Source: Nemertoderma westbladi (Eukaryota; Animalia; Xenacoelomorpha). From it: 64,000 nucleotides of DNA. The position numbers were made by a program, and so were the translations under genes. The stretch covers positions 62,001 to 126,000 of the forward strand of contig JAUCBJ010008661.1 in assembly GCA_032718475.1 (NCBI GenBank). The letters run 5' to 3'. How positions within the stretch are numbered: position 1 is the first letter of the stretch; every line of letters begins with the position of its first letter. Below the pieces are notes generated by a model. The model ran no database searches. It was not told the origin of the DNA and worked only from the letters and a program-made list of their open reading frames with translations. Positions 1 to 25,595 of this stretch are shown here, piece by piece.

Positions 1-1
1 A

Positions 2-1902
2 TGGCCTCCTCACCTTACTACGGCGGAAATTAGACAAGCCAAGGGAGCGGAGACCGTCAAACCTAAAACCCGGGCGAGTAAATCGAAGTTATTTAAACCG
101 ACTATCGATCTATCTGTATTACATGTTTCCGAAAACGATGATTTGGATCCACAATCCCTCGCTATAAATAAGTCTGTTGCGGAAATTCGAGATAGAGATT
201 GGAAATCTGGAATACCAGACGTCTCGCAAGGAATCTCACCCCTGCTGCAGAGAGCGATGCATCACTACAGTTCCTGGAATCGGCTCTGTAAAGCCGTCAC
301 ATATTTAAAGAGATGCTTTCATCATCAATACTCCAGGGCGAAGACCACTAGTGATAACGCTCCATTGACATCTGCACAAGTTCATGTTATTAAAAACTTA
401 CCTAAATATAAGGTGTCTGACAGTTTTCTAAAGTGAAAATTAGTCACCAGGAGCATGAAGAGACTAATAAACAGATACTGAGACTCCTGCAATGCTATGA
501 GGATTCCGAAAAGTATTTCCTGTTGTTGAGAAATCCGCAGATGCGCTTAAGGGATCGATTCTCTAGCACAATGATAGATGGGTTAATACGTGTTGTAGGA
601 AGGCTAACCAATGCACCCTTATCCTTTGACACTAAATTCCCCATACTCATTAGAAATCTTGAAGTACAAATCAAGATGATTGTAGATGTTCACAGTAAGC
701 TTTATCATGCTGGAAGAGAACGAGTTCTTAGCGAAATTCGAACTCGCTATTATTTTGATAAACCCCGTAGGGCTCTGAACCAAGTTCTTAGGAACTGCAT
801 ACCCTGTAGGAAAGCATTCAGTAGGCCTTTAACACAGCGAGAGGCAGAATTACCTAGGGAACGAGTAAGCTTCTATGAACCACCTTTTACTAATACTGGT
901 GTAGATTTATTTGGCCCTATTGAAGTATATCGTGCGAGGACTATAGTCAAGAGATGGTGTGTCATCTTCGTGTGCATGACTTGCAGAGCCATCCATCTCG
1001 ATATGGTGAACGATCTATCTACCAACAGTTTCGTCTTAAGTTTACGACGACAGATCGCTCGCTTCGGTACGAGTAATACCATGAGATCGGACAAGGGAAC
1101 GAACTTCATTGGTGCCAACAACGAAATACAGGCCTACGTAAAGGACTGGAACCAAAGACAGGTGGATGACCAGCTAAGGATAACAGCGTCTAGCTGGACC
1201 TTCAACGCCGCCGACGCCCCTTGGTGGGGAGAAAGTTGGGAGAGATTAATTAGAAGTGTTAAGACCGCATTTCACTTTATAGTGCCATGCCGTGCGTATC
1301 TCACCGACGAACTTTTGCGGACGTTAATGGAGGAAATAGCTGCCTATCTCAACGAGAGACCGCTTATGCCAGTCTCATCGAGTCCCGATTCCCTGGAAGC
1401 GCTAACACCTGCGCACTTCCTACTGAAGAAACCGGTAGCCATGCTCCCACGATCGGAGATTGCCGACGGAGACGAATACTGCCGTCGAACTTGGCAACTT
1501 ATGCAGTTGCTATCCCGTCGTTTCGCTGACCATTTCGAGAAACATTACCTGCCCACGCTACAACTTCGAACTAAGTGGTTTGCGCAGCAGGAAAACGTCA
1601 GCGCCGGAGATATGGTACTTATTGTAGATCCAGACCTCCCACGTAAACGGTGGCAGACTGGTCGTATCATCGAGACCCATATCTCGGAGGATGGTTTAGT
1701 GCGTTCAGTAGAACTCATCGTTATGCGGCGTAACTTCAAGAAGCCTGGCATAATCTTTGAGACGCAACAACTCAATCGCCCAGTTGGTCGTTTATGTTTA
1801 CTGGAAAGAGACAGAGAACTCTCTGGAAACTATGGAAGACAAGACACTCTTCCCACGACCACCTCCCTAATTCCTCAAACATCTAGGGACTCCCAAACCT
1901 GA
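2..1902 (+). pseudogene. pol: BEL/Pao pol C-terminus (integrase Zn-binding HHCC, DDE core, C-terminal domain), frameshifted near 433
   Basis: Motifs H-x4-H...CIPC, GVDLFGP, SDKGTNF, APWWG.SWERL, LNERPL, LTPAHFL, W..GRI....DG.VR are typical of BEL/Pao. Compared with copy B there is a 1-nt loss at ~433, and conserved glycines are substituted (VGGRL>VVGRL, WWGG>WWGE). Confidence 0.93.
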
Positions 1903-1906
1903 TACG

Positions 1907-1920
1907 TCTGGAGTGGGTGT
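1907..1920 (+). promoter_or_regulatory. PPT-like motif directly after the pol stop (TCTGGAGTGGG-TGT)
   Basis: Resembles the true 3' PPT/LTR junction TCTGGGAGCGG-TGT (7843-7856) and is conserved in copy B (13595-13608, - strand). Confidence 0.45.
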
Positions 1921-2089
1921 ATGACTATGTTATTTATCTATTTTATTACATTTTATATGCGAACTTTATTATGTACTTTATTATAATCGTTTTTATTCAA
2001 TTTTTATTTAGTAGAATGTTATTTTAGGGATTATTTAGTAGATTAGTGCAATATATTAGTGTTTATTACGTACATAATTACTATAATAT

Positions 2090-3480
2090 ATATTTAGTGC
2101 GACGGCGAGAAATAATTATTTTTCTCTTCCCTTACTGTCCGTATCATATTATAAATACGTGACTACAGTAAGATGAAATGTCCGTACTTCTTAAAGTACA
2201 ATAAAGCCACTACTATATTTAAGTATTATTGGTAGGCAGAGTATTAGGAATGCAAAGTTCAGATCCTCGTGTCTCGGCTAAACCAAGCTCTGGGTAGACC
2301 TTGGAAACGACTTGCCTCTTCACACTGACATTGCTTCGTGCGATATTGCTCTTCTACCTTATAACAAATAATACATATAGTAGCGTGATGTCCCTCTAAC
2401 AGTAGCGTAAATCGCAAATAAATCTGTTAAACTTTTTGACCATCTGTAATTCTAGTCGATTAAGATATCGTGGCACCCACCGATATACTTGAAAGACAAA
2501 TTCTAGAATCAGTGGTTAACGTCCCCAGACAAGTTCTGGAATAAATCGGTGCTCATCCTAAATATTAATTTAATATTTATTAAAATCTGTAAAATCCCGA
2601 TCCTTTAAAATTTCTAGTCAATTAAGATATCGCAGTATTTACCGATATTCTTAGGAGGACTATTTTATAGAATTAAGGATCCTAAGTCCCCAGATATGCT
2701 CTGGAATAAAATTTGTCAATTTAACATCAAATAATAAAATTCACGGGAATAAATTTAAATTCATATTCAAATGAATTTCATAAATTGTCATTTTGTGCAA
2801 TTTATAACATTCCCAAAATTCCAGTAATTAATAGATCATGGGAGCGGAGATTCATATTGAGTGTACTAGAGTGCGAGAATCTCCAACATATAGTCAATAG
2901 CCGATAAAATTTATAAAATCATGCATAAAGAGGATATTGACAATTAAAGAATTACTATTAAATAGCATCCCAGATCTGTATGCATGAGAATTACCCTAAT
3001 TCTACCGCTAGTTTTCCATAATGTCACCATGGCAACACCCACGCTAGAATTAGAAGCAAGTTAAAGGAACAATAAAAAGCTTGCCCCATTGCGTAGCATA
3101 AGAGTATACATAGCGCACTATTAGTATCCAAGGATACATAGTAATAACGTGACATTCTGGAAGACACTGATTAACGGACAAATGGCCTGCATGTGTGCAG
3201 TAAGTAATGATTGTATGGAATTTGTGCGTTTATAGGTGAATGTTACTACTAAAGTGTGTTTACAGTAGCTAATCGCAATTGTAAAGTAGCCCTAACTCTA
3301 CCGAGATAACCTCAAGTGGATTCAAGCCTTTGGGACGGACAGTGGTGGGACTTGTGCCGGTTATCGTTGTCGTGCTGTTGCTACATGTTGGCGTAAACAC
3401 CGCGACGACGGTACATCGGCGCTGAGAAACCCACTGTCCGGGGGCAAAGCCTAGTAGGCAGCGACGCCCGCTTGCCTAAA
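2090..3480 (+). ncRNA. Conserved structured RNA region (pol-accessory ORF spacer), function unknown
   Basis: Many inverted repeats are retained in copy B: 2131-2172, 2466-2486, 2846-2883, 2996-3052, 3117-3143, 3336-3440 and 3455-3478. There is an 84-bp block identical between copies and compensatory substitutions in the 3336-3440 stem. Confidence 0.62.
2420..2710 (+). repeat. Two-copy ~162-bp diverged tandem duplication inside the spacer
   Basis: TCTAGTC(G/A)ATTAAGATATCG...CGATAT...GTCCCCAGA...CTGGAATAAA occurs at ~2451 and ~2613; both copies are also present in element B (~12735-12860 and ~12965-13090). Confidence 0.85.
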
Positions 3481-3520: not shown

Positions 3521-6500
3521 ATGACGGAATTGATAGAAGATGACCTTGGTATCAGGGAGCGATATACTCTACCTTTACAAGCGTTTGTGGATAGCTTGAT
3601 ACGCGGTGAAGCCGATCCGACTATTACGGAGGACGATGGTCGTTATATCGAACCGCCGATGTCCCAGGAACAACTTACGCATGAATTGGACTATAGAAAA
3701 TTCACCGCTCGCTATACGAATCGTAATGGTACGTATATGGACTTCTTAACTACCGGCCATCCTACCGATTTACATGATACGGAAGATGTAGACACCGAAA
3801 GGGAAATGGTTTTATTTAAATATCATGCCCAGCGGAATCGTAATGATAAACCGAGAATAGAACACGAGAACTCTATTCGCAACCTACTCGACAGAGAAAA
3901 CGTTGAAGAACCCGATAAGCGCATCAACTTCAACGACTACTTGGAATTTTTGAGAGAAACCTATCTCAATATTGCCAGTCAACAGAACCTAGAGACTCGA
4001 TATCCTCAAGGTATACATCACGATCCCATGGTAGAACTCAAACGACTCTATTTCACCATGATGTATCTTACCTCAGATCGTCCACTGCCTGTTGTCCCAG
4101 ACAGCTTTGAACAAATGGAAGAGTATTGCAAAACTGGAGAACGATCACCCGCGTTTCCTCTGCAGGATGTACGTCTTTGGTATTATTGTGACTCATGCCC
4201 TAGACCTAACCAGCAAACGGAAAGACATAAACATCTGCGAAGACGTTGTGTTAAACACAGTTTTACGCGTTATACTTACGGGAGTTGCGAGCGAAACCTG
4301 TTCGACGTATCACCTACGATCGCCCGTCTAAAACGATCGCTAAATAAACCCATGATCAGAGTTCCGGAATACTCGGTCAGGCCTCCTCATTCCCCAGTGA
4401 GACCTCAAACTCTTGATCCTAACAGTATCACTGATCCTCCCGAGTTATACTCACTGTTCAAAGATTTGGTGTTACCCGAGCAGTTAATCGGTGGTGTTCC
4501 AGCGGTAGGTTCGTTAGATATTCGACCATCCTATTTAACCGGATTGGGACGCGGGCATCTAACATCGCCATTTAATCCTTACAATCGGCCAGGATTAACT
4601 CCGATACAACCTGCCACGGAAGTCGAGGAGAGTGTCATCAGAAACGCTTTAGACGCCATCCGACAGAAAATCGGAAAGGGAACACAGGATTTTCTAGAGA
4701 AACGTAAATTACAGCAGCAGGTCCAATCGGTGAAAGAGTTAGCCTTGCCGCAGTTTGATAGAGAAATCCAAAACCTCGAAGAGGACATCGAGCTTGGACG
4801 TACGTATTCTCTACAGGAGTTTCTAGAAGAACGCTTACAGAAACAAGCGGAGGAAAATCAACTAGAGGAGAAACATACGGAAATGGATGAGAGAGAAGAA
4901 GCCGCTTTAGCCCAACCCGAAGCTCAGATACTCATAACCGATCTCTACTCTAAAACCGTCCGTCATCCATCGATGGTTCCGCATTTCGGAGACAAACTTT
5001 TTGCAAAGATACAACCCCAACCGGTTGATATCAGCATAAGATCGCAAAATCTTATCGCTGACGCTCCTATGTTACAGCGTCCGCCAATCGAGGCCGCTCG
5101 AGTTGACGGTATACTCGTTGAACCTCCGGACAATCGAGCGGATCTTATCCGTCGTATGGTACACGATGTCAACATACGCGCTAGACCTTTACAGAACTCT
5201 TTTTATGGAATTAAAGACCACCCTTATTACGTTAATCTGACTCAATATTATATGGTAAAACCAGAAGATCCGACGCATAATTTAAAGTTTCTACCACTAA
5301 TAAATCCTCTGGACATTGTCGAACTCGAACAATTGCAAAAACATCTGGATCAGTTAGTAAAGGTAAACTCATTTCGAAAACCATATAACGTTTCTCGAAT
5401 AGAGAAGGATACAGAACCTCCTTATAATCTCGATGGATTTATTAAAACTCGATTAGTCCATTGGAATCTAGACGTATTATTCGAGGAGGAGAAAATACAA
5501 AGATATGGAAATGTGGAGACGTATACCACTCGATACATGAAGTATAGTGATCTCCCTGACGCTAATCAATGCGCCACCTTGTGGCATCCAGTAGGGATGA
5601 CCCTCGAGAACGCCACCAAAGAGTGGAATGAAACTCTTAATATCATTGAGATGTATGGCGTTGTTACTTACGATAACGAAGGTAGCGTTCCAATCGGAGA
5701 ATTAGGAACTACGCGCATGATACACATACGCGGATTAGCTGGTTCCACTCACGTGTTTACGCGAGCGTGTTCAGACGTGATCGATTATTCCTTTGAAACT
5801 CTCACCGAAACGCAAAAGAATCTCCGACATGGACAATTCGAACTGGCGCAGCGTTACGTCATTGACACCGAACGCAAACCGGCCATGGGTATCGATGGAT
5901 CGATGTTACCCCAGCCCGTTCTCGAGATGTTATTCAACGAAAGAATCATTAAAATCGGCTCAGCTGTTTACGGAGATCTCCAAAACGACTTTCGGAATAT
6001 GGAAAATATCCCCTATCCTTTCGTGGATACTCAGCTGATAGCTCCTTGGGCCGAAGGTCGAGGTTTCTTTCGCACCATGTATGCTAATGCATCTAGCAAC
6101 ATTACAAAGGTGCAACGAACTTCCATCGGACATCTTGCTTTTCAGGAATACGGATGGAATTTCAAGGTCGGAAATCCCATCAACTATCAACAAGTATACG
6201 GAGACCATTATTCTCGATTATACTTTGACGGACCGTTGACCGCACCTGGCGCTGTGTATAGCTTCATGAGTGTTCCACTCCGCCCCTCCTTAGCTATCTA
6301 CACGATCTTCGAAAACACCGCACTTTCCGGTTGGCTAGCCGATGTGTGCAGTCGTACTATACGCGCCCATCCATTAATCCTTGGGACCAAACTCGCTAAG
6401 CTAGATGAACATAATAAATTCATCCGCTTTGAATGTTTCCGACGATTTTTAACCCCGTTTCGCAACGTGGATAGCCAATTCAAAGACCGCGCTTTGACCA

Positions 6501-6811
6501 AGCTCAGCTTAAGAGATTCGGCTGTGGAGAAGTTAGATAGCGCTGGATTTGCTATTTTCAAAGACATTTGTATAATAAACCTGCACTCCTCTGTTATCCA
6601 AAGACCTCGAATCCCCACAGGTTATTCTGTCGTGGAAATTCAGACGGTAGGTCCACTTGAGGAGACGGCCATGCCTACCTCAACTATACAAGGGGAAGAC
6701 GAACCCATATGTTTAGAATCTGAAGAGATTCAGCCCCCCACGTCTCGGAGTAGCGATAGCGACTACATATTGGAATGGTATCAAGGTCCACATGTGTCTT
6801 ACTGCGTATGA
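3521..6811 (+). CDS. Retrotransposon accessory protein, N-terminal part: putative CxxC..H..C Zn finger, coiled coil, DEDDy-type (WRN/EXD/RNase D-like) 3'-5' exonuclease domain (~5600-6340)
   Basis: 1096-aa ORF. ExoI-like VVTYD718NE720G; LPQPVLEMLFNERIIKIGSAVYGD819L (ExoII); FVDTQL; SIGHLA..YG; ExoIII-like PLRPSLAIY927TIFE931. Differences from copy B are mostly synonymous in the stretch checked (4331-4430). Confidence 0.78.
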   Translation: MTELIEDDLGIRERYTLPLQAFVDSLIRGEADPTITEDDGRYIEPPMSQEQLTHELDYRKFTARYTNRNGTYMDFLTTGHPTDLHDTEDVDTEREMVLFKYHAQRNRNDKPRIEHENSIRNLLDRENVEEPDKRINFNDYLEFLRETYLNIASQQNLETRYPQGIHHDPMVELKRLYFTMMYLTSDRPLPVVPDSFEQMEEYCKTGERSPAFPLQDVRLWYYCDSCPRPNQQTERHKHLRRRCVKHSFTRYTYGSCERNLFDVSPTIARLKRSLNKPMIRVPEYSVRPPHSPVRPQTLDPNSITDPPELYSLFKDLVLPEQLIGGVPAVGSLDIRPSYLTGLGRGHLTSPFNPYNRPGLTPIQPATEVEESVIRNALDAIRQKIGKGTQDFLEKRKLQQQVQSVKELALPQFDREIQNLEEDIELGRTYSLQEFLEERLQKQAEENQLEEKHTEMDEREEAALAQPEAQILITDLYSKTVRHPSMVPHFGDKLFAKIQPQPVDISIRSQNLIADAPMLQRPPIEAARVDGILVEPPDNRADLIRRMVHDVNIRARPLQNSFYGIKDHPYYVNLTQYYMVKPEDPTHNLKFLPLINPLDIVELEQLQKHLDQLVKVNSFRKPYNVSRIEKDTEPPYNLDGFIKTRLVHWNLDVLFEEEKIQRYGNVETYTTRYMKYSDLPDANQCATLWHPVGMTLENATKEWNETLNIIEMYGVVTYDNEGSVPIGELGTTRMIHIRGLAGSTHVFTRACSDVIDYSFETLTETQKNLRHGQFELAQRYVIDTERKPAMGIDGSMLPQPVLEMLFNERIIKIGSAVYGDLQNDFRNMENIPYPFVDTQLIAPWAEGRGFFRTMYANASSNITKVQRTSIGHLAFQEYGWNFKVGNPINYQQVYGDHYSRLYFDGPLTAPGAVYSFMSVPLRPSLAIYTIFENTALSGWLADVCSRTIRAHPLILGTKLAKLDEHNKFIRFECFRRFLTPFRNVDSQFKDRALTKLSLRDSAVEKLDSAGFAIFKDICIINLHSSVIQRPRIPTGYSVVEIQTVGPLEETAMPTSTIQGEDEPICLESEEIQPPTSRSSDSDYILEWYQGPHVSYCV

Positions 6812-7775
6812 TTATCGCTATGCCAATTATGTTTCTCGACAACATTGTCGGCTGTGCGCATCGAGAGACCATATTACGTCTATGGACACCAACGATCTCT
6901 GTTCCTATTTCCACGAGCAACCGTCGATGGAAATCTATTGTGCATATTGTCGGCTTAATAATTTGCACATTTTTGCTGTCTGCCCCCAATTTATGACTCA
7001 ATGCCATCATTGTCAATTAAAAGGACACGCCAGCTTTGATTGTCCCTTTAATCATGATTTAGAGAGCGTAGATGAAATGATTGTACTACGTTATATCAGA
7101 GCTTGGGAAGCGAACGCTGATTTACATTGTGATTCACGCCATCGCTATTACCCTGGACGCGCTTACGAAGGAGTTTATGCGTTCCATCCTTATTTGTTTG
7201 CCTCCGTCGAGCAGAAATCACGCCTATCAAGTTATGAACTACTGAAGCGCGTTGGAGAATGTATTTCAACCAAATATGTACGCAAATTTCTCAGGAGCAT
7301 TAATCCGAGTGACATCTATTCTTACAACTTAATAAACTTTATCCGTCAAGATCCTGCCTATGGAGACTTATTTGTCAACTCACACCCCGAGTTACAGGAA
7401 GTATATCGACGGCCTTACGAGTACCGAGCCCGCGAACGCGAGTTGGAAAGAACCATTAAACCAAGGAAGTTTCTAACTGCCTATGGTCCACCCACGGCCC
7501 TCGTTCAGACCTCTCGTAAAGGACCCGTAAGAGCGGCTGTCTTGAAACGAGCTCTCAAAGCCGTTAGACCCCTCTCCCCGGACGTTGATGTCAATCAACC
7601 CGGTACTTCTACCGGCGGATATACCGATCGTAATCCCATACCTTCTGATGCAATCATATTGCACCCTTCACCCAGGAGTTATAGCCCTCCTCGTAAAGTG
7701 GCTCGCCCCAAAGAGAAAAGGACTCTTGCTAGCTTTAAAAAACTGCGTAAACGCCGTCCGCACAAGAAAGACTAA
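6792..7775 (+). CDS. Accessory protein C-terminal part: three CCHC-type zinc motifs and a basic (NLS-like) tail; probably continuous with 3521-6811
   Basis: Motifs CRLCASRDH..C, CAYCRLNNLHIFAVC and CHHCQLKGHASFDC; ends KKLRKRRPHKKD. This frame is open from 6717, and removing one C from the C6 run at 6734-6739 fuses both ORFs into ~1417 aa. Confidence 0.75.
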   Translation: MCLTAYDYRYANYVSRQHCRLCASRDHITSMDTNDLCSYFHEQPSMEIYCAYCRLNNLHIFAVCPQFMTQCHHCQLKGHASFDCPFNHDLESVDEMIVLRYIRAWEANADLHCDSRHRYYPGRAYEGVYAFHPYLFASVEQKSRLSSYELLKRVGECISTKYVRKFLRSINPSDIYSYNLINFIRQDPAYGDLFVNSHPELQEVYRRPYEYRARERELERTIKPRKFLTAYGPPTALVQTSRKGPVRAAVLKRALKAVRPLSPDVDVNQPGTSTGGYTDRNPIPSDAIILHPSPRSYSPPRKVARPKEKRTLASFKKLRKRRPHKKD

Positions 7776-7842: not shown

Positions 7843-7853
7843 TCTGGGAGCGG
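7843..7853 (+). promoter_or_regulatory. Polypurine tract of copy A
   Basis: TCTGGGAGCGG lies immediately before the TGT LTR start; identical in copy B (10302-10312, - strand). Confidence 0.75.
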
Positions 7854-9060
7854 TGTAAAAGCTTTTGTGGGATAACTGATTCGTTTGCCTTGCTGGCCAG
7901 TTCCCCCCCGGTCGCTAGAATACTCTAAAAGGGATCTATAGCTAAAATAGTGCAAGCTACCAGCTTATTGGCTGATATGCTGTACGAAGGTATCTGGGTT
8001 CTGTTCGATCGGCCAACCAGCTTAGGGAGGTTGCCTCAGCCCTGCTGTCCGTATCGGCCAATAGAATTTGAGTGGGCGTTGATTTTGACCTATCCCAGAG
8101 CTACTGAACTGAATTTCCTATCTGTATGCTCATCCTCTGTGTTGGACGGGAGCTTCGGGGAATAAGGGTAGTTGGTATCCTCGTATAGTCAGGTAGTCAT
8201 ATGATTCTTTATATGATTCTGTTGTTGTGTTCCCATTTTTCGCCAGACCACCGGCTTTGGGAAGAACTCTAGTAAAACTGCTTAAATTATCGAAAGTATA
8301 ACTGTTATCTAACTGGTCTAATTAACTCACTATTAATCATATAATTCTCCCGAACTTTACTTATTAATTATATTGTTTGTACTGCTATTTACCGTCAGTT
8401 ATTAATTGTATCGATTTGTTGAGGAAATATTGCTCTTTGGAGAATACTGATAAATCACCCAAAATTCCCAATTTTCTTGATACACTACAGGTTAGAGAGA
8501 CAGGCTATACATAACAATTGCGATTTATATCAATGTGGTGTGTATTGAATCTAATGTTATTTAGCAGACCCTACATGAGTCAATTGCTGCTCTCTTTATG
8601 TGTGATCAAATTTACTGACGGTCGGCAGAATAGTGTGCATGATTGTGATTGGTAACAAAGCATTTCCTAAAGAATGCGCCTTATACTTTAATCATAAGCA
8701 GTATCGTTGCGTTTAGTATAAGTCCTAGCTCTGTTTAAATAGATAGAGCGCCACGTCCTAAAGGAACTGTTAATATTTCCCGAAAGCTAATAATATCTGT
8801 CAGAAATTACATATTAGTGATCAATCGAATAATACAGTAGGTTTACACTGCAATCTTACACTGCAATAATAATAATTTAAGCATCCGAATTCAGCCTCCC
8901 GGGTGTATCCATCGGGTGAATGATCGCGCATGGGCTGGCTTCGGTTAATGTTTTGTTTATTAGCATAAAATATTGTCGTATGCTAAAGGTGTTTTAATGA
9001 ACTAAAAGACATATAAATTTTGGCAGGTTAAACTGCTAAAGGTCTTCAAAAGCGCGAACA
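7854..9060 (+). repeat. 3' LTR of copy A (~1.2 kb, TG...CA)
   Basis: Starts TGTAAAAGCTTTTG and ends AAAGCGCGAACA. Homology with 18600-19460 (reverse complement) stops exactly at the CA. Confidence 0.88.
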
Positions 9061-9201
9061 GCACTGATTTGCTTCGCTTGTAAAACGAAGTCACTATACC
9101 ACGACAAAGTTTTCAATGCCAACTACTACTTAACACGCAATGCTGTCAATAGTTATAGCGGCTGGTTTTTTCAAACTCCTCGCCTCCTGTAAAAATGTAT
9201 A

Positions 9202-9242
9202 AATGGAACATGTTTTACATTAAATGTAAAACATGTTCCATT
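9202..9242. repeat. 41-bp palindrome (20-bp perfect arms, 1-nt centre)
   Basis: AATGGAACATGTTTTACATT-A-AATGTAAAACATGTTCCATT. Confidence 0.9.
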
Positions 9243-9265
9243 CATTTAAATTAAATAAAGCAGAT

Positions 9266-9550
9266 GGGGGGGGGGGGGGGGGAACTGGACGCAATAAAAA
9301 TTCATCCCTCACTGGGGGAAATTCGACGCAAATAACAGCTGATTACTCTCAAATATAAAACTGTAACCTGTTCTATTGTGTTTAGTTTATTGTTTTGATT
9401 AAAATAACGTGCCACTGTAACCTGGTCCTTTCCCTAAATTGAGAAATTAACATTGAGGCGGGATATTAATTCGCCAAGGCGAGTTTTGCGTCCACCCCCC
9501 CCCCCCCCCCCCCCCCCCCTGTGCGTGACATAATTTATGAATGCCCCCTA
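9266..9550. mobile_element. Probable MITE remnant with G-run and C-run inverted ends
   Basis: G17..TGGACGCAA pairs with TTGCGTCCA-C25, followed by GCGTGACATAATTTATGAATGCCCCCTA, which resembles a common MITE terminus. The inner ~45 bp (9355-9398) recur inverted at ~28416-28458. Confidence 0.4.
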
Positions 9551-10083
9551 GGCACCTTTTATGGGGAGATACTCGTATCTATACCGCCTTAAAACGACTC
9601 GACCTGGTATCTTATAAACTGCTAGATCGGTATATCACAAATAATAAATAACAAGAATATAATAAAACGTATGACAATATTTGAGTATTTCACTTACATT
9701 AAAGTACGGCCAAAATTATAGATTCATCTTGATGTTTCATTAAAAATTGGAAGAATATAACACCCGTACAGTCACCATATATTCCGAAGTCAATACAATT
9801 TTATATTTTCAAATTACATGGTTGAGACGTACTAATCTTTCTAAGTGCCTCCTTAAAACTTGGTATACCCTCTAAAACTAAGTAGTTGTACATATAAATA
9901 CATTCAAAGCCCTTGCTAGAAACTTTCTAAGCTTTCAAAGTATATGCATAAAACTTGCTATACTTAGTAGAACTACGTAGTTGCACTTAGAGATATGTTA
10001 AGTACTTACAACATACTTGGTCCACACCATTGCTAAAACTTAAAAGGCTAGCTTTGCAAATATCGCAAGTTATTTAAATAGGG

Positions 10084-10301
10084 AGATTTCGTCATCTAAG
10101 CCACACTGTATTAAGAGTATTTTGGCGTATTGCGGCATAAAATGGCTTGTTATGTCCGCTAAAGTAAACATACAGAAAAATGGCTTTTTATTTCCGCTAA
10201 AACACCTACACAGTAAGAAAAACGGCTTTTTATGTCCGCTAAAACACCTACAGAGTACAGAGCGGGGAAAATGACTAGTTATATCCGCAAAAGCCTTTAC
10301 A
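10084..10301 (-). repeat. Truncated 3' LTR of copy B (first 218 bp)
   Basis: Matches 19580-19797 with ~5 mismatches counted by eye; preceded by the PPT. Confidence 0.92.
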
Positions 10302-10377: not shown

Positions 10378-11912
10378 TTAGTCTTTCTTATGCGAACGGC
10401 GTTTACGCAGTTTTTTGAGGCTAGCAAGAGTCCCTTTCTCTTTGGGGCGAGCCACTTTACTAGGAGGGCTATAACTCCTGGGTGAAGGGTGCAATACAAT
10501 TGCGGTCGGTGTATCGGTCGGTCGAGGTACCCGGTTGATCGGTATCAACCTCAGTGGAACGAGGTCGAACAACCTTTAGAGCGCGTTTTAAGACAGCAGC
10601 TCTTACTGGTCCCTGACGGGTCGTTTGCACGAAAGCGGTAGGTGGACCGTGTGTAGTGAGAAATTTCCTCGGTTTGATGATTCTTTCCAACTCGCGTTCT
10701 CGGGCTCTATCGGAATCGATATGCCTCTCCTCGAGCTGATTTTCCTCCGCTTATCGTTGGAAGCATTCGTCCAAAACTCTTGCAGAAAGTAGAGTCGTCC
10801 AAGTTCGATATCTTCTTAGAGATTCTGGATTTCCTGATCGAACTTAGATAACGCTAATTCGTTTACCGCTTGGACTTGCTGCTGCAATTTACGTTTTCCT
10901 AAACAATTGTAGGTTCCTTTTCCGATCTTTTGACGAATAGTGTCCAACGCGTTTCGTACAACTCTCTCCTCCACCTCGGTGACAGGTTGTATCGGGTTAA
11001 ACCGGGACGATGATACGGTTGAATGGCGATATTAGATGTCCGCGTCCCAATCCGGCTAGGTAAGATGGGCGAATATTTAGGGAGCCCACAACCGGAGTGC
11101 CACCGACTAATTGTTCGGATAACACTAGATCTTTGAACAGTGAGTACAGTTCGGGAGGATACGTGATACTATTAGGATCAAGAGTCTGAGGTCTCACTAG
11201 GGAGTGAGGAGGTCTGACCGAGTATTCCGGAACTCTGATCATAGGTTTATTTAAGGATCGTTTGAGTCAAGCGAGCGTAGGTGATACATCGAACAAGTTT
11301 CACTCGAAACTCCCGTAAATATAGCGAGTAAAACTGTGCTTAGAGCAACGTCTCCGCGGATGTTTATGTCTTTCCGTTTGTTGGTTGGGTCTTGGGCATT
11401 CATCGCAATAATACCAAAGACGCAGGGGATACCGTAGCGGAAACGCGGGTGATCTTTCTTCAGTTTTACAATGTTTCTCTCAAGAATTCCAAATAAATGT
11501 TGGAGTCACCGCGTTTATCCGGTTCTTTAAAGTCTTCTCTTTCGAGTCGATTTCGAATAGAATTTTCGCATTCGATTCTCAGTTTATCGTTCCGACTCAG
11601 ATGGGTATGATATTTAAATAGGACTATTTCCCTTTTGGTGTCGACATCGTCCATATCGTGTAAATCGATAGGATGACCAGTAGTTAAGAAGTCCATATGC
11701 GTATCATTACGATGCGTATAGCGAGCAGTGAATTTTCGATAGTCCAATTCACGAGTGAGTTGCTCCTGGGACATTGGCGGTTCGATATAACGACCATCGT
11801 TCTCCGTAGTAGTTGGACTAGCGTCGCCGCGTATTAAGCTATCAATAAACGCTTGCAACGGTAGAGTATATCGCTCCCTGATACCAAGATCATCTTCTAT
11901 CAACTCAATCAT
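10378..11912 (-). pseudogene. Decayed accessory ORF of copy B
   Basis: Fragments MIELIEDDLGIRERY..., MIRVPEYSVRPPH... and ...KKLRKRRSHKKD match copy A. A ~2.5-kb deletion at ~10707 removes the exonuclease and zinc-knuckle regions, and there is a smaller deletion at ~11465. Confidence 0.92.
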
Positions 11913-13613: not shown

Positions 13614-16600
13614 TTACGTTGGGGAGTCCCTGGATGTTTGTTGGATTAGGGAGGTGGTCGTGGGAAGAGTATCTTGCCTTCCATAGTTTCCGGACAGTTC
13701 TCAGTCTCTTTCCAGTAAACATAAACGACCAACTGGGCGATTGAGTTGTTGTGTTTCGAACACAATTCCAGGTTTCTTAAAGTTACGTCGCATGATGACG
13801 AGTTCTACCGATCGCACCAAACCATCATCTGAGATATGAGTCTCGATGATACGACCTGTCTGCCACCGCTTACGTGGAAGATCTGATTCCACAATAAGGA
13901 CCATGTCTCCGGCGCTGACGTTTTCTTGCTGCGCAAACCACTTGGTTCAAAGTTGTAGCGTAGGCAGATAATGTTTTTCGAAATGGTCAGCGAAACGACG
14001 GGATAATAACTGCATAAGTTGCCAAGTTTGTCGGCAGTATTCGTCTCCGTCCGTGATTTCCGATCGTGGGAGCATGGCTACAGGTTTCTTCAGTAGGAAG
14101 TGCGCGGGTGTTAGCGCTTCCAGGGAGTCGTGACTCAATGAGACTGGCATAAGCGGTCTTTCGTTAAGATAGGCGGCGATTTCTTCCATTAACGTCCGCA
14201 AAAGTTCGTCGGTGAGATACGCGCGGCACGGCACTATAAAGTGAAATGCGGTCTTCACGCTTCTTATTAATCTCTCCCAACTTCCTCCCCACCAAGGGGC
14301 GTCGGCGGCGTTGAAGGTCCAGCTAGAAGCTGTTACCCTTAGCTGATCGTCCACCTGTCTTTGGTTCCAATCTTTGACGTAAGCCTTGATTTCATTGTTG
14401 GCGCCAATGAAGTTCGTTCCCTTATCAGATCTCATCGTGTTGCTAGTTCCAAAGCGAGCGATCTGTCGGCGTAGACTCAGTATAAAACTGTTGGTAGATA
14501 GATCGTTCACCATATCTAAATGGATCGCTCTACAAGTCATACAGACAAAGATGACACACCATCGCTTGACTATAGTCCTGGCACGATATACTTCAATAGG
14601 GCCAAATAAATCCACACTGGTATTAGTAAAGGGTGGTTCATAGAAGCTTACTCGTTCCCTAGGTAATTCTGCCTCTCGCTGTGTTAAAGGCCTACTGAAT
14701 GCTTTCCTACAGGGTATACAGTTCCTAAGAACTTGGTTCAGAGCTCTACGGGGTTTATGAAAATAATAGCGACTTCGAATTTCGCTAAGAACTCGTTCTC
14801 TACCAGCATGGTAAAGCTTACTGTGAACATCTACAATCATCTTGATTTGTATTTCAAGATTTCTAATGAGTATGGGAAACTTAGTGTCAAAGGATAATGG
14901 AGCATTAGTTAGTCTCCCTCCAACGCGTATTAACCCATCTATCATTGTGCTAGAGAAACGATCCCTTAAGCGCATCTGTGGATTTCTCAACCACAGGAAA
15001 TACTTATCGGAATCCTCATAGCATTGCAGGAGTCTCAGTATCTGCTTATTGGTTTCTTCATGCTCCTGGTAACTGATCATCTCCTTCAGAAATCTGTCTG
15101 ATATCTTGTATTTGGGAAGATCTTTAACAACATGGACCTGCGCAGATGTCAGTGGAGCGGTATCACTAGCGATCTTCATCCTGGAGTAGTGATGATGAAA
15201 ACATCGCTTTAAATAAGCAACGGCCTTACAAAGCCGATTCCAGGAGCTATAGTGATGTATCGCTCTCTGCAGGAGAGGTGAGAGTCCTTGCGAGACGTCT
15301 GGTGTTCCAGATTTCCAATCTCTCTCCCTGATTTCCACAACAGACTTATTTGTGGCTGGGGATTTTGGATCCAAAGCGTCGTCTCCGGAAGTGTGTAGTA
15401 CAGACAGATCTATCACGGGTTTAAATAACTTCGATTTACTCGCCCGGGTTTTAGGTTTGACTTTCTCCGCTCCCTTGGCTTGTCTAATCTCCGCCGTGGT
15501 AAGATGAGGAGGCCATTCATCTTCTTCCTTGCTTAGGAAGTCGGGTCCACCTAACCAGTCTGGAGTATCTATCAGTTCTTGTGGAGTTGCTCCCCTGGAG
15601 GCGATGTCGGCTGGATTAATCGTCCCAGGGCAATGTCTCCATTGATCTATCTTCGTGCGACTGTGGAAGTATAATGGCTACTCTGTTGGTAACGAAGACG
15701 CTGAACTGACAGACTTCATTGGTTATATACTCCAACACGAGTAAAGCATCGGTCCAATAGACAGTTTTCTCCAGTGGATAGTCGATCTGTTCTGTTACAT
15801 TCCGGCCGATGGCTGTAGCGTATAGAGCCGCTTTTAACTCCGCTCGAGGAACTTTCAACTTGTTGTTTATCAAGGCCTTAGAGGTAACCAAGGCGACCTT
15901 AATTCCATCCGGAGTTTCAACCCTCAGGTAGGCTACTATACCTATTCCCATGTCGCTGGCGTCTCCAAACACATGGAGTTGATAGGAATACATAAGGAGA
16001 ACGTGACCAAAATAAGAACGGGAAATCGTAAAATTCTCGATGGATGGTAGAGAATCTTCCCATTTCATCCACTTCTTTAATAGTTCTCCCTTAAGTGGAT
16101 TGTCCCACGAGTGGTTTTCAAGCCACATTTGTTGTACTAGACTCCGAGCAATCAATATAACTGGGCTAATAAATCCCAATGGATCGAAATAAGTGCTCAG
16201 GATACTTAGACAAATCCGTTTAGTTCGAATTGGATTATCTCGCTGTTTTAGCTGGAAAAACAGGATATCTCTCTCCGTGTCCCATTTCAAACCAAGCGTC
16301 TTGGTTTCTGGAAGATCGTCCTTGATAAGGTCTAGATCTTTAACTCCTCGGTCTTCTACCGGGATCGATTCCAGAAATTCACGGGAGTTACTGGTGAATT
16401 TAGTTAATCGAAATCCACCTCTTTTCAAGCACTCTACCGTTCCCTTGGCGACATCAATGGCTTCTTCCACCGATGGGAGGGACTTTAAATTGTCGTCCAT
16501 GTATATATCCCGTTTGATGTTGTCGATAACCTCTTTGGAGAAGGCGTCCCGGTGGTCATCAGCAGTGGTGCGCACTACTGAGCAGGCGTTTGAAGGGCTC

Positions 16601-18552
16601 GAGATGATCCCAAAAGCTTGGATGGTCATCCAGTACTCCACCGGTTTCTGGTTGAGGTCTCCTTCAGGCCACCACAGAAATCGTAGGCTGCCCGATCCCT
16701 ATCCAGCGCCTTAACTTGTAAGAACATGCCTTCTATATCGGAGGCGAAAGCGATCGAATATTGTCGTAATCTTAAGAGTATTCCCAACAAGGATTGGAGT
16801 AAGTTGGGTCCCGGCAACAACTCGGAGTTAAGGGATTGGCCCATGTAGAGGGCGGAGCCGTCAAATACTACCCGGACTTCGTTGGGTTTACCGGGTTTGG
16901 GAACGTAATGATGTGTTAAATAGTACGTTCTCTCAGTTATAGGTGTTTCTTCCGGTACTCGCTCCGCATATCCCTTGTCAATGAATTTCTTCAGCTGGGT
17001 CTTGTACATCTCCTTAGCTGAAGCATTTGCCGTAAGGTGTCGATGTAGTTGCGCAATTCTCTTCTCCGCCAAGGGTCGGTTGTTTATAAAATTGGGTTCT
17101 CACCGTCGGAAAGGCCGACCAATCTCATACCTACCTTGATCTTTAAGAAAACGGGTAGTCGTTTCCTGTATCTGCTTGGCTCTTTCCTCTTCTACCGATA
17201 GGGCCTTATCGTAGGAATTGGGCTCTACAGCCTCTTGAGTAAAGAATCGTACGCCGTGTTCATCGCGAGTCTTCGCATTGTAACGATCTATCACTTCATT
17301 CAGTTCGTCGTTGTAATCGACTTGTCCCGCTGGATGGATGAGGTGACACAGGTTCACTTGGTTTTGCCAAGTTTCATTTTCCGTAAGGAGGTTGATGGTA
17401 TTCTCCTCTTCGAATAGTTGATGTATATCGTCATTATCTGAGGAGTATGGTGTTCCCTCAGGTGTGTCGTCTCCCTCACTGATTTCCTCTTCCCATTCAC
17501 TCACCTGGTAGACCTGTTCTTTAGGTAGCCTTTCCATGAGAGTTCTACGGGAAGGTCCAGTAAAGTACCAACCTACTCTAGTTCTTCCCGCATAGGTTTG
17601 CAATGGTTGCGGTTGAGCAGGCCGTTTCTCTAATGTCTCAAGCGCCTCATGCGCATTTTGGCTGATGAGTATTTGTACCCCTGGGTAGTCGGTGTTGAAT
17701 CTAGGTATCTCATGCTGCTGGGTGAAATCGTCTTCATCCCAGTTATAAGGTTCCACTTGGCTGGTAACGAAGTTCTTTATCGCCACCATTTTTACTGACC
17801 TTATACTGTGTTCTCCTAGTTCATCCTGGGGGGTGGACAACGCGCCTACATAGTAGTCTGTAGCTACTGTAGATTTCCAAACCTGCATAATTCCTGAAAG
17901 GTTCAACTTAGTTCGGAACTTGGGTTGTCCAGCAAATATGTCTTCGGCTAGTTCTTTGTCGATGAATGTTCCTGTGCTGCCAGAGTCAAGGAGGGCGTTC
18001 ACTTTATAGCTCCTTTTTAACCCATGGACTCTCAACTGCACTACGGGAAATTCTCGGATTCCTACGTTGGAAGTTGGCGCTTTCCAAGATGGTTGTCGGT
18101 CAGGAATAGTTAGGGGGAGCTCACTATCGGTTTCAGTCTCATACGTAAGTGCTCGATACACTGCGGTGTTTATTAGATAACAGGATTCGTTTTCGTCGGA
18201 GAATTCATCCGTGTAGAATCCTTCCATCTCAGAACTGTGGTCAGTGTCGTTCACATCACTGAATTGGACATGTAGTTCGGACTCACTTACCTGACTCGGG
18301 CTGTTTCTTTCGAATTCGGTCTGCAATAAGATATGATGTTTCGCGCCGCACTTAGCACACCTTGCGTCGGAGTAACAGGTTCGCCGTTGGTGTCCTTGTC
18401 TGAGACAATTATAACACAACCGCTTCGCGTCTGTCTTTTAAGGATTTCTTTAAGAATTCCTCACACACACTTAAACGGTGGGGCCCGTCGCACAACGCAC
18501 ATTTTGGTTTGATGTTACTTACTTTACCTTGGGTAGTGTTGTGCACACTCGT
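13614..18552 (-). pseudogene. pol: BEL/Pao gag-pol remnant (three Zn knuckles, aspartic protease, RT, RNase H, integrase)
   Basis: Knuckles CALCDGPHRLSVC, CYNCLRQGHQRRTC and CAKCGAKHH; protease ALLDSGSTGTFI; RT RVVFDGS, SDIEGMFLQV and YMDD; RNase H HVFGDAS, PRAELKAA and YWTD; integrase as in copy A. Broken by several frameshifts and stops, and most of gag is missing. Confidence 0.93.
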
Positions 18553-18599: not shown

Positions 18600-19797
18600 T
18601 GTTCGCGCTTTTAGACCTTTAGCAGTTTAACCCGCTAATTTTAGGTGTCTTCTAGTTTATAAATCGACTTTAGCCTATAACAAGTATTCGTTGCATATAA
18701 GATATAAAGTTACATTAGCCGAAGCCAGCCTATGCGCGACCATTCACCCACAGTTAAGGGAGACTGGATTCGGAGGCTCTGACCTTATTGCGGTGTAGAC
18801 TTACTGTACTATTCGATTGATCGTTAATATATAATCTCTGACAAATATTATTTACTTTCGGGAAATATTAACAGTTCCTTTAGGACGTGGCGCTCTAAGT
18901 ATGTAAACAGAGTTATGACTTACACTAAACACAACGGGATGGCTAATGATTTTCGTATAAAGCGTATTCTTTAGGAAATGCTTTGTTATCTGTCACACTC
19001 ATGCACACTACCGCACACTGCTGCACACTGATCTGCCGACCTTCACTAAATTTGATCATATATAAGGAGAATAGCAACTGACACATGTAGGGATTATGAA
19101 ATAGCATTCAATTCACTCCAAAACCACTATAATGTAAGTCGCAGTTGCTACAGGTAACTGGTCCCTCTTACCTTCAGTATATCAAGAAGATTGGGGTTTT
19201 ATGATTATTTATCGATATTCTCCAAATATAACAACATATCCATCAACTTATCACAATTAATAACCGACAGTAAATAGCAGTAAAATAATGCGGTGAAAGG
19301 TATGTATAGTATGATATGGGCTGCGCCGTGTGTGCTGAGCCGTGATAACAGTTATACGTTCCTATAATCAAAGCCGTCGAATGTTTGGCTAAAGTCTGAA
19401 ACTAAGAATAATTCCAAAGCCGATGTTCTGGGCTCAGGAAAAGGTAAACAAAGACCGTCATGCATTGCGCGATTTCCCGTAGGCTTCTGTGCAAATAAAA
19501 TGAAAATCGCTCTGATTGGTCGAGTGAGCTGAACAAAGAGAGTTAAGAAAGCTCCACATCGACATCAAAATGAGCTGATAGATTTCGTCATCTAAGCCAC
19601 ACTGTATTAAGAGTATTTTGGCGTATTGCGGCATAAAATGGCTTGTTATGTCCGCTAAAGTACACATACAGAAAAATGGCTTTTTATGTCCGCTAAAACA
19701 CCTACACAGTAAGAAAAACGGCTTTTTATGTCCGCTAAAACACCTACAGAGTACTTTGCGGGGAAAATGACTAGTTATATCCGCAAAAGCCTTTACA
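18600..19797 (-). repeat. 5' LTR of copy B (1198 bp, TG...CA) with ~43-bp tandem repeats in U3 (~19635-19752)
   Basis: Element strand starts TGTAAAGGCTTTTGCGG and ends AAAGCGCGAACA. It contains three copies of AAAA(T/C)GGCTT(G/T)TTATGTCCGCTAAA. Confidence 0.9.
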
Positions 19798-19822: not shown

Positions 19823-21660
19823 TTTTATTTTTTTTTTTAAATATACACCCCAAGCGGGGTAAACTGGCTTTTTAATTAATCATTCAATATATAAAATAAA
19901 TAAAACTGAGGCATTATTTGGTAGTCTATAAATTACTAAAACAATCACCGGTATATATAATAGAATCACTCAGAGGCTAATTGTGCAGCAGAAGGGGAGG
20001 TTGGACAGTTAATAATATGGAGGCGGTCTTGGCAGCACTCGCCACAGAATATGCAAATACACTGCGGTGATAGGTCGTGGAATGAAGTTTTGGTCGTACA
20101 TAGTTTATGGTGGAACCCATGACAGGTTGCTCGCGTAATTACGTGTCGGTTTCGCTGGCCCGGGGCTGTCCAGCCCATTGATGTGAACGCCGGCCCTCTC
20201 CGATATCCCTCAGACTCGAATTTTGCAATCCTTTCCCTTCGAAAGGCAAAATATTGGTCAAGAACATCAGGCTTGAAACTAGCTTTTGTGTTGTTTTTCA
20301 GTATGTCCTCTATCTGTGTTCCTTCTCCTATAATATTCAGTGCCAAGGTTGACGAAGCGGTTTTGTGAAGGCCGAGTAAACGTTTTGCATATGTAGCTTT
20401 GATTTTGTCCAACTCCTGTAAATTATGTAGTTTTAGAAATCTGCTATAGGTAGGAAATGCGTATAGTACCATAGGTGAGATTTTGCCATTGTATATTTTC
20501 ATTGCTGTAGAAACTGAAAGTAATTGTAAATTCTTTAGGGATCCAATAATCTGGTAAGCGTTTTATTTTTTGGATTTAATGTGGTTTGTAAAGCATAGGC
20601 TCGATAGTATTGTTAATCCAAGGTATTCATATTCGTTTGCTAACAACACTGGGTTTCCGTTATAAGTGAACTTGTCAGTTTCCGATAGCCGACCGCCCTT
20701 TCTAAATTTAACTATTTTTGTTTTTTTCAGGTTAAGCTGCATTCCATTTGTTTGGCACCATTCGTATATAGCATCGAGAGATAGTTGAATTCCTTCTTTG
20801 CTCTTCGAATACACCACAAGGTCGTCAGCGAAAAAGATAAATTTAATCATGTGGTAGATATTTCTGAGGATATCAGCGAGATCGGCAACGTATAGTACAA
20901 AAGGCAGAGGAGATAAGCAGTCCCCCTGTAGGACGCCTCGGAGCTGGCGAATAACCTTGGACAGTTGGAGTCCGTCGTAGATCCGTATATAGTTATGAAG
21001 CAAGTCTTTTATGAGCTCGAATGTCTTCCCTTTGATTCCTAGATTATGTATCTTGCACAGAAGTTTCGCACGGGAAAGCATGTCAAATGCCTTCCTAAAG
21101 TCAATAAAAAGTGCATAGATTACCCGTTCTTTGCGCCTATTTGATTGCAATGCAGTGTATATGTCATCTAGAAATTTGGTGATCGCTTGTATAGTAGACT
21201 TTCCGGGTTGAAATCCAAACTGCTCGGGTGGAATGCCGTTTGAGAGAAATAATCGGATGCGTTTACTTAAAATCGATGTGAGTATCTTTAGACAAACGGA
21301 TATTAGCGCTATTCCACGGTAATTATCTGGGTCGGCAGTCGCACCTTTCCCCTTGTAGAGGATTTTGATAATGCTAACTCTCCACTTATCAGCAATCTTA
21401 CCACTATTTAGGCAGACATTGTATATAAGAGTGAGGTAGACAAGGATATAGGGTATTGCCTGCTTCAAGTGTTCGTAATAGACTCCATCATAACCTGCTG
21501 CCTTCTTTGTAGAGCTGTGATAAACCGACTCTATTACATCTTCACTATCTATTGGAGAGTTATACCATGCTTGTTCAAGCTTATCTTGTTCGGTTGTTTC
21601 AGGGATTTCTGGACAGTTTCCCGGAATGTTGTCTTCACCTAGTAGTGTGTTAAAATGTTT
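19823..21660 (-). mobile_element. 5'-truncated non-LTR retrotransposon (LINE; RT plus C-terminal CCHC), clade not determined
   Basis: RT motifs NYRGIAL, QFGF, FIDFRKAFD, QGDCLSP and FADD; C-terminal CIFC...HIINC; frameshift at the T-run near 20565; poly(A) at 19823-19838; 3' hairpin ACCCC-GCTT-GGGGT; TSD GTATAGCTAT at 19813-19822 and 21661-21670. Confidence 0.92.
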
Positions 21661-21869
21661 GTATAGCTATTAATAACCAGTAGGGCCTAGCTATATTATT
21701 ATAACATGGCTCCAAACGCCACCATAAATATAAGCTAACTTTTATATAACATAATTTATGTCATTTTTACATTTATTTTCACAGCAACTAATTTAATTTG
21801 TGCAGTTTCTATCACTTATAATATATATACAATAATTTCGTAATGTTACAATTTTGGAATAAAACTACA

Positions 21870-24041: not shown

Positions 24042-25595
24042 CCCTATTAAACCCGGGGGGGGGTCAATATGACCCCTCCCGTGGTTTTTTTATTATAATT
24101 CTGAAACTAACGCAGTTGGGAATCTGAAATTTTGTGACTTTTCCTAAAAATCTATTGTCTTCCTAGTAGTGAAAACCGTTTTCAAAAATATTGGGTACTT
24201 TTCGAGTTATAGCACCATTTTTTAACCCTACTTTTGGCACTTTTTTTGAGACGTTTTTTGAAAATTACATTTCATTAAATATTAATTGTAACATCTCTAT
24301 TTTTGATTTACACCGGTTTTTTGGTGTTAGAAATTTGATGGAATTCATATAAATTGATTTAGAAATTTCAAACTTGTTTTTTTCGGTGGGTGCCAAATTT
24401 TGGTGCCAGCACCAAATTTTGAAATAAGTCAATTTTGTAAATTGATCGTTTGAAACTTGTTTTTTACGCAATTGGGGTTTTTTGGGTTTCTGGATTCGAT
24501 GAAATATATACGAGTTGCACCAAGCGTATCAAAATTGTATTTTTCGGTGCTGTGTGCAAATTTTGGTGCTAGCACGAAATTTTGAAAATCTGTTCAATAG
24601 ATAAAATTGCTTGTGACAATTTATTTCTAGAGGTTTTAGAGGTTTATGGCTGTTCTGAATTCAATGGAAAATACAATTATCGAACTAGACATCTCAAACT
24701 TGTATTTTTCGGATGTGGGTGCAAAATGTGGTGCTAGCACCACATTTTGAAAACCATCAAATATATCAATTGATTGTGTCACCTTGTTTCTTGCGTTATA
24801 CGGGTTTGTGATGGTTCTGAATTCAATGGAATCAGTAAAAACTTCATAAGAGTTCTCAAACTTGTATTTTTCGCCGGTGGGTGAAAATTGTTGTGCCAGC
24901 ACCAAATTTTGGAAAATATGCAAATTAATAAGTAGATAGTATCACCTTGTTTCTTGCGTTATACGGGTTTATGAGGGTCCTGAATCCGATGGAATCAATA
25001 AAAACAGCACTGGACATCGCAAACTTGTACTTTTTGGTGATGGGTACGAAATTTGGTGCTAGCACCAAAATTTGCCAAATTACGCCGAAAAATACAAGTA
25101 GCAATGATCTGGCGTATTAGAAATATATTCCATTAGAATCAGCGCCCTCGAAAACCTGAAAATGTGAATTTATAGCATCGTATAAGTGAATTAAAAATTT
25201 TGTGTTCTAACTGAAAAGTGCTGGTTACTTGTTTTTTTCATTTTTTTTCCTACGCAGAGAGGACTAAACAGCCATTTATAGTAATCATATCATTTTTTAA
25301 TATTTTGCAATGTATTTTGCACCCCAGAAAACCTGTATTGAAAAATAATTAGCCGAAAATGTAACTTTCAAATTTTGTGAAAATTGTGCACTACTTGTAA
25401 TTTTGGTGCTGCAATATAACCACCCCAGTACATTTTTTCGAAAATTTTTTTTTTCGGTCGGATCCAGACAAGTGATACCTACGCACAAACAAAAAATCAG
25501 CCGTTTTCGTAAATATTTGTAGATTTTAGAGGGGGGGGTCAATATGACCCCCTCCCGGTATTTGTACAACATTTTATAGCCCGGTACTAATAGGG
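24042..25595. mobile_element. Non-autonomous piggyBac-type DNA transposon (MITE)
   Basis: TTAA (24038-41) CCCTATTA...TAATAGGG TTAA (25596-99); imperfect 16-bp TIRs; subterminal palindromes GGGGTCAATATGACCCC at both ends; no transposase. Confidence 0.88.
24290..25160. repeat. About five diverged ~165-bp tandem units inside the MITE
   Basis: AAACTTGTATTTTTCGG...AAATTTTGGTGC(T/C)AGCACCAAATTTT recurs at ~24370, 24531, 24697, 24858 and 25021. Confidence 0.82.

Follow-up and report, generated by a model that had tools for sequence, protein, structure and literature searches.

A selected third gene with a probable DEDDy-like exonuclease domain inside a BEL/Pao retrotransposon of Nemertoderma westbladi

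The bdelloid rotifer Juno and Vesta long terminal repeat (LTR) elements, and the Terminons, carry an open reading frame (ORF), ORF3, for an RNase D-like DEDDy exonuclease with a DEED motif; the available portions of PMC5408684 report no coiled coil in it and no departure from neutrality, and its function was untested there. This work is cited in PMC5718144 and PMC6338049, which, like PMC5408684, PMC3706591 and PMC3118150, were available in part, so that statements drawn from any of these five apply to those parts. Dada DNA transposons have a DEDDy domain inserted within the DDE transposase, with all four DEDD residues canonical (PMC3706591). BEL/Pao elements are 4.2-10 kb long (PMC8742986), and the only third genes found for them in PMC8742986 and in the available part of PMC3118150 are env-like; 'exonuclease' occurs 0 times in that part of PMC3118150 and is absent from PMC2774666 and PMC13524379. 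The literature searches brought up no exonuclease gene in any BEL/Pao element; Repbase, subscription journals or the supplements of PMC3118150 (with the sequences of all BEL/Pao elements) and PMC5408684 may hold cases. Here we describe a BEL/Pao element of Nemertoderma westbladi (assembly GCA_032718475.1, contig JAUCBJ010008661.1, positions 62,001-126,000, forward strand; this stretch of 64,000 nt is called the window, and all coordinates are the window's) with a third gene under purifying selection whose middle domain very probably has the DEDDy fold. An earlier note on this DNA had proposed such a gene and had pointed to a precedent in rotifer retroelements, which the published DEDDy ORF3s bear out (PMC5408684).

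The window's first 20 kb holds a single kind of LTR retrotransposon in two copies that have diverged and are oriented tail to tail. Copy 1, on the plus strand, enters the window within pol and continues with integrase, a 1.6-kb spacer, the third gene, a polypurine tract (PPT) and an LTR. Copy 2, on the minus strand at 19797-10084, runs from a 5' LTR through gag knuckles, protease, reverse transcriptase, Pao RNase H, integrase, spacer and a third-gene remnant to a PPT and a truncated 3' LTR. Because the LTRs of copy 2 enclose both pol and the gene remnant, and the order is equal in both copies, the third gene is part of the mobile unit and sits 3' of pol and 5' of the PPT and 3' LTR, where the earlier note had placed it. 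The gene has no terminal repeats of its own, as an independent nested element, the alternative considered beforehand, would have. That the third gene is real, under selection and inside the element is virtually certain. In copy 1 it comprises two overlapping sense ORFs between the integrase end and the PPT/3' LTR, with the following parts.

3521..6811, plus strand: third gene ORF 1, 1096 amino acids (aa); N-terminal region without assignment, Cys/His cluster, charged helical region, putative exonuclease domain
4187..4288, plus strand: Cys/His cluster C223, C226, C243, C256, a possible zinc site, seen in the sequence; no Pfam family match
4643..4915, plus strand: charged, proline-poor stretch at about residues 375-465, likely a coiled coil, by composition only (48% E/K/R/Q at 401-450)
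5618..6355, plus strand: putative exonuclease domain with D718, E720, D819, Y927 and E931; DEDDy-like, D-E-D-E
6717..7775, plus strand: third gene ORF 2; three Cys/His knuckles, helical region, Pro/Ser-rich and basic tail
6846..7043, plus strand: three CCHC-type motifs, by pattern scan; zf-CCHC_3 at E=0.014 (Pfam), under the cut-off

The sense ORF region of about 4.25 kb described previously is not a single open frame in this copy, being broken once, inside the 6717-6811 overlap. The break is absent from the contigs that span it in four public sequencing runs (10, 4, 1 and 1 contigs); a single protein of ~1400 aa is therefore the likely product of other copies, with ORF 2 as its presumed C-terminal part, continuing ORF 1. 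The ORF 2 knuckles lie at C43-C61, C74-C88 and C95-C108, and the basic tail has a net charge of +13 across 50 residues; pattern scan and charge count thus agree with the three zinc motifs and basic tail of the earlier note. Its coiled coil is a likely one, judged from composition. Features of env were not seen: the best 19-residue Kyte-Doolittle window is 1.37, with none higher, the N-terminus is acidic and there is no Pfam env match, no dedicated signal-peptide predictor having been run. Since hydropathy never rises above 1.37, no transmembrane (TM) segment is predicted, as had been claimed.

Evidence for purifying selection is strong and extends to all tested parts of the third gene, the nuclease domain included. 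Between copy 1 and copy 2, the ratio of nonsynonymous to synonymous change (dN/dS) is 0.23 in one part of ORF 1 (146 codons, confidence interval (CI) 0.12-0.39), 0.10 in its second shared part (243 codons, CI 0.06-0.16) and 0.15 in ORF 2 (108 codons, CI 0.08-0.29); all three parts lie outside the exonuclease. Pol gives 0.06 and 0.20 in the same comparison, and wrong-frame controls give 1.18 and 2.08. The range of 0.10-0.23 is far under 1, the value at which the proposal of a functional gene was to be dropped, and at 4331-4430 seven of the eight differences between the copies are indeed synonymous.

The earlier note found the third gene in both copies, which is correct for 1615 of the 4340 aligned bases of the region. 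Copy 2 lacks 3961-4124 and ~4880-7425, a loss that takes in the entire exonuclease and every knuckle, and it carries stops and frameshifts; it therefore does not give the nuclease the backing that had been supposed. Because copy 2 has lost this domain, selection on it was tested with the contigs of the four runs, aligned to 5620-6340, using the best-supported 40 of 158 variant places. Synonymous changes make up 35 of these 40, where 11.9 are expected (p=5e-14), and none of the 40 touches any of the five active-site codons. No indel at 5% or more is present in the domain in the four runs. In one run 62,870 contigs match the 9.3-kb element stretch, a figure that is not a copy number; such abundance agrees with a highly polymorphic family of many copies. 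The nuclease has been taken out by at least four distinct deletions, namely that of copy 2 and the contig joints 3883-6693, 4453-6899 and 5261-7616 (3 of 15 joints among 66). Retention of the nuclease in certain lineages alongside its recurrent loss elsewhere is what is expected for a protein acting in trans.

The single relative of the window protein among 1.84 billion representative proteins is P0003, a 648-aa ENA protein (E=6e-6; 31% identity across 150 aa), in which an exonuclease is followed by three CCHC knuckles and the same four acidic positions (D-E-D-E) occur. The P0003 knuckles match HIV nucleocapsid (E=1e-4), and the window knuckles match those of P0003 weakly (pairwise E=7e-4). 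The 650-aa N-terminal part of the window protein is absent from P0003. Three word-based searches, length-limited and so no proof of absence, returned no relative beyond P0003, and no related loci were found in JGI metagenomes, IMG/VR, phages or plasmids.

Tests for homology of the middle domain are individually weak, mutually consistent and not fully independent. For residues 670-1040 the top ESM Atlas matches are PF01612 clusters (score 0.94, with 174-178 of 256 features in common; thresholds are not measured for protein parts), and the ten best family-bearing matches belong, 10 of 10, to the same family or clan. The label of nucleocytoplasmic large DNA viruses (NCLDV) on these neighbours was not used as a sign of viral origin. 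The NCBIfam RNase D model matches residues 798-843 at E=0.0017, far under its cut-off. A hidden Markov model (HMM) that represents 48 PF01612 domains of bacteria, the majority from RNase D, gives the window domain 14.6 bits, a score reached by 0 of 1000 shuffles (maximum 4.8), and aligns D819 on the ExoII Asp. A joint profile of the window domain and P0003, compared with the alignment of the 48 domains by hhalign, yields a probability of 90.8%, whereas none of 60 column shuffles exceeds 1.56%; when P0003 serves as master, the match reaches across ExoI, the ExoI of the pair having been anchored by hand. The window protein, P0003 and 30 of the 48 references all show the ExoIII pattern PL-x6-Y-x3-acid, for which the chance expectation is 0.5%. 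The residues D718, E720, D819, Y927 and E931 are located as had been claimed, and the call of a DEDDy-type exonuclease is upheld as far as homology goes (Atlas, HMM, hhalign). Another D-x-E, at 782-784, does not qualify as ExoI, since its distance to ExoII is 37 residues and a glocal alignment pairs it with the third RNase D strand. Pfam detected no HRDC or helicase domain in the protein. AlphaFold models, with no alignment behind them, have a predicted local distance difference test (pLDDT) score of 30.0 and 29.5; on models of this quality, which speak neither for nor against the fold, Foldseek gave no match at E<=0.001 (Egalitarian, rank 1, E=2.1, and WRN exonuclease, E=5.4, were left uncounted), and the best VIA-align Z was 4.3.

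Element structure was established from the following features.

1..1902, plus strand: 3' part of copy 1 pol (end of RNase H region, integrase); Integrase_H2C2 E=1.1e-7, DUF5641 E=1.9e-20 (Pfam)
7846..7853, plus strand: PPT, 8 purines, identical in both copies, immediately 5' of the LTR TG
7854..9060, plus strand: 3' LTR of copy 1, 1207 bases, TG...CA; 535 of 657 bases of its 3' half match the copy 2 5' LTR, and similarity stops at CA
10084..10301, minus strand: truncated 3' LTR of copy 2, 97.7% identity with its own 5' LTR over 219 bases
10378..11912, minus strand: third-gene remnant of copy 2, deleted and broken, without exonuclease or knuckles, from the copy alignment
13700..18510, minus strand: copy 2 gag knuckles, protease, reverse transcriptase, Pao RNase H and integrase; Peptidase_A17 E=4.8e-37, Asp_protease_2 E=0.001, YMDD motif; broken, gag mostly missing
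18600..19797, minus strand: 5' LTR of copy 2, from LTR comparison between copies

By domain content and order the element is a member of BEL/Pao (Belpaoviridae) (PMC8742986). Elements of this group are metazoan, in keeping with an animal host. The pol order of copy 2, protease-reverse transcriptase-RNase H-integrase with DUF5641, is that of BEL/Pao, and an LTR of 1207 bases and a PPT of 8 bases fit the BEL/Pao values (LTR 0.2-1.2 kb, PPT ~10 nt). Copy 2 gag retains three Cys/His knuckles at ~18350-18500 on the minus strand, interrupted by a frame break; triple Cys/His knuckles in Gag are a BEL/Pao feature. In copy 2 only ~100 bases separate the LTR end from the gag knuckles, the part with the primer-binding site being deleted, and copy 1 begins outside the window. 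The copy 1 pol frame is broken near 421-436 into two overlapping ORFs. Summed from its parts, the element is longer than 13 kb.

Several further features of the element were observed. The LTRs of the two copies, compared at 7854-8371 and 19289-19797, have their first ~25 bases and 3' half in common and an unalignable middle, which suggests two LTR subfamilies with a swapped or fast-evolving U3. About 1 kb (9060-10084) separates the tail-to-tail copies, forming a large imperfect inverted repeat from which read-through transcripts would yield double-stranded RNA. A 1.7-kb pol skip (53-1765) occurs in contigs of all four runs and indicates a widespread deleted subfamily. Contigs of one run join mid-LTR 8482-8490 to 3304-3323, just 5' of the third gene, which hints at derivatives without gag and pol that keep only third-gene ends.

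Two features of the spacer bear on how the third gene may be expressed.

1908..1920, plus strand: PPT-like purine run and TGT directly 3' of pol, resembling the true PPT/LTR junction; seen in the sequence of both copies
2081..2420, plus strand: conserved non-coding block with TATA-like 2150, donor-like 2167 and AATAAA 2200, all three motifs in both copies

Identity between the copies is 86-97% per 100 bases across 1903-3302, and within 2081-2420 only 22 of 337 bases differ, versus a dS of 0.40-0.47 in pol; the spacer is thus better conserved than synonymous sites. The conserved, TATA-bearing spacer could be an internal promoter for the third gene, perhaps a former LTR, giving a separate mRNA. 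The run at 1908-1920 may be an internal PPT or mark where a fossil LTR began. No similarity of spacer to LTR was detectable (scores 946 and 951 against shuffle maxima of 971 and 967), so the fossil-LTR idea stands on motifs. At 2420-2710 the spacer carries a ~165-base unit twice, and copy 2 has an additional partial unit.

The function proposed for the third gene is as follows. Unbroken copies would make a single protein of ~1400 aa from a subgenomic mRNA started in the TATA-containing spacer. Nucleocapsid-like knuckles and the basic tail would hold an RNA substrate, whose 3' ends the exonuclease would trim by two-metal catalysis through D718, E720, D819 and E931. The protein would act in trans, with deleted copies riding along. 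Its targets may be precursors or slicer products of Piwi-interacting RNAs (piRNAs) and small interfering RNAs (siRNAs), whereby host small-RNA silencing of the element would be blunted. Mut-7 and Nibbler trim small RNAs, and arenavirus nucleoprotein and coronavirus ExoN are DEDD nucleases directed against RNA immunity; because of this analogy small-RNA defence appears the likeliest target. The chain as a whole, from a selected third gene to an RNA-binding 3' trimmer working in trans against small-RNA silencing, is put forward tentatively, with something less than an even chance. Its boldest form, a BEL/Pao lineage in which env was replaced by a D-E-D-E exonuclease with knuckles, the promoter came from a fossil LTR, the product destroys or mis-trims piRNA and siRNA in trans, and the element is a fourth independent carrier type, is rather unlikely.

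A number of results weigh against this proposal, beginning with the domain itself. Searches of Pfam, PHROGs and PDB sequences gave nothing significant for ORF 1. With the window as hhalign master the local match is 48 columns, ExoII only, and ExoIII is unaligned; D718 and E720 were placed as ExoI by pattern, by hand anchoring and via P0003, less firmly than D819. The earlier note's claim on motif spacing does not hold against the bacterial RNase D/PolA references, in which the medians are 57 and 70 aa, where ExoI-II here measures 101 aa and ExoII-III 112 aa, with two insertions of ~40 residues relative to them. The ExoIII acid is Glu (E931) in both window and P0003, where all 30 of the 30 pattern-matching references have Asp. 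The candidate active site therefore reads D-E-D-E(-y), DEDDy-like and not canonical, with Y-x3-E in place of Y-x3-D, and this is the part of the DEDDy call that did not stand. For this reason catalysis is only putative, though on balance we lean towards an active enzyme. The common Asp-to-Glu change marks a small, nearly orphan subfamily missed by standard Pfam annotation. As to function, mature piRNA ends are 2'-O-methylated and resist such enzymes. The repeated deletions mean that the nuclease is not needed in cis, yet they say nothing on a role in silencing. DNA is a substrate of DEDDy enzymes as well (PMC5408684).

The same Glu is the starting point for a different reading, in which the protein is a pseudo-nuclease scaffold, like Egalitarian or EXD1, that binds element RNA and whose coiled coil links it to transport or ribonucleoprotein granules, routing the element to germ cells in place of env. 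Egalitarian has a transport role, and the knuckles, coiled-coil-like stretch, basic tail and env position all suit such a scaffold, as does the existence of inactive DEDD derivatives that retain RNA binding (PMC5408684). However, two proteins only ~30% alike retain the Tyr along with every one of the four acidic positions, and none of these residues is hit by the best 40 of 158 variants; the first rank of Egalitarian in Foldseek (E=2.1) comes from a model of pLDDT 29 and was counted as nothing. We consider a scaffold fairly unlikely, and unlikely, too, a replication helper packaged via the knuckles, which would trim or proofread the ends of cDNA or RNA while an unusually long element (more than 13 kb) is being reverse-transcribed. 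The helper draws on WRN and PolA relatives that work on DNA, on the likeness of the P0003 knuckles to retroviral nucleocapsid, on an element length exceeding the family's 4.2-10 kb (PMC8742986) and on the 3' end processing suggested for rotifer ORF3 (PMC5408684); against it, the gene is separate, past a 1.6-kb spacer, with no Pol fusion, and such a gene is not described for BEL/Pao in PMC8742986 or the available part of PMC3118150.

Selection argues against two further explanations. Benefit to the host, by antiviral defence or by self-limitation of element activity, has been put forward for accessory retrotransposon domains (PMC6338049), but selection that shows when diverged lineages of this mobile, multi-copy family are compared points to the level of the element, and the window copies are broken; it is improbable here. 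A neutral passenger or separately nested element is largely refuted already and very improbable. The PPT-like motif and TGT after pol could be an older 3' end, on account of which the third gene was probably acquired as a block, and many copies have it deleted; yet the dN/dS of 0.10-0.23 contrasts with 1.18 and 2.08 in the wrong frame, the gene has no terminal repeats of its own, the spacer is unlike the LTR, and the LTR 3' of the gene matches the 5' LTR that precedes gag.

Elsewhere in the window, non-LTR-type reverse transcriptase ORFs occur at 19966-21666 on the minus strand (RVT_1, E=3e-37) and 25880-28189 on the plus strand (E=8e-29), and tandem repeats at 24281-25099 (163-base units) and 29056-29418 (142-base units). 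More than half of the window, 30300-64000, is taken up by a satellite of 35-base units, in which G/T strand skew is strong, higher-order repeats occur and many long spurious ORFs arise.

How animal retrotransposons counter piRNA and siRNA defence is a largely open field, and the available text on rotifer elements describes exonuclease third genes for which neither selection nor function was in evidence. Cargo of this type has been published before, in another LTR family. The present case extends exonuclease-type cargo to BEL/Pao; here the nuclease domain is itself under strong purifying selection, is unbroken in the window and can be assayed directly. Since Pfam annotation misses this subfamily, exonuclease third genes may be undercounted.

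Compared with known systems, the domain resembles PF01612 (RNase D, the PolA proofreading domain, WRN/EXD2/Mut-7/Egalitarian) in having ExoI D-x-E, ExoII K-x7-D-L followed by DTQ, and ExoIII PL-x6-Y-x3-acid; the K-I-G form ahead of ExoII is one that we take to be WRN/Mut-7-like. It departs from PF01612 in the ExoIII Glu, the two ~40-aa insertions and scores under all curated cut-offs. Dada and the window element are both mobile with a DEDDy-type exonuclease, Dada being a DNA transposon with a canonical site (PMC3706591). The element is like other Belpaoviridae in its order of protease, reverse transcriptase, RNase H and integrase, Pao RNase H, DUF5641, ~1.2-kb LTR, short PPT and optional third gene (PMC8742986; PMC3118150 in part), and unlike those described in its length of more than 13 kb and in a third gene that is nuclease-like, with no predicted TM segment, where theirs is env-like. 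With the rotifer Juno and Vesta ORF3 (PMC5408684), compared by description and not by sequence, it shares an RNase D-like exonuclease gene 3' of pol at the env position and an altered acidic motif. Here, by contrast, the carrier is BEL/Pao, the motif is D-E-D-E and not DEED, and the product, at ~1400 aa, would have a coiled-coil-like part and three CCHC knuckles and is encoded by a gene under clear purifying selection.

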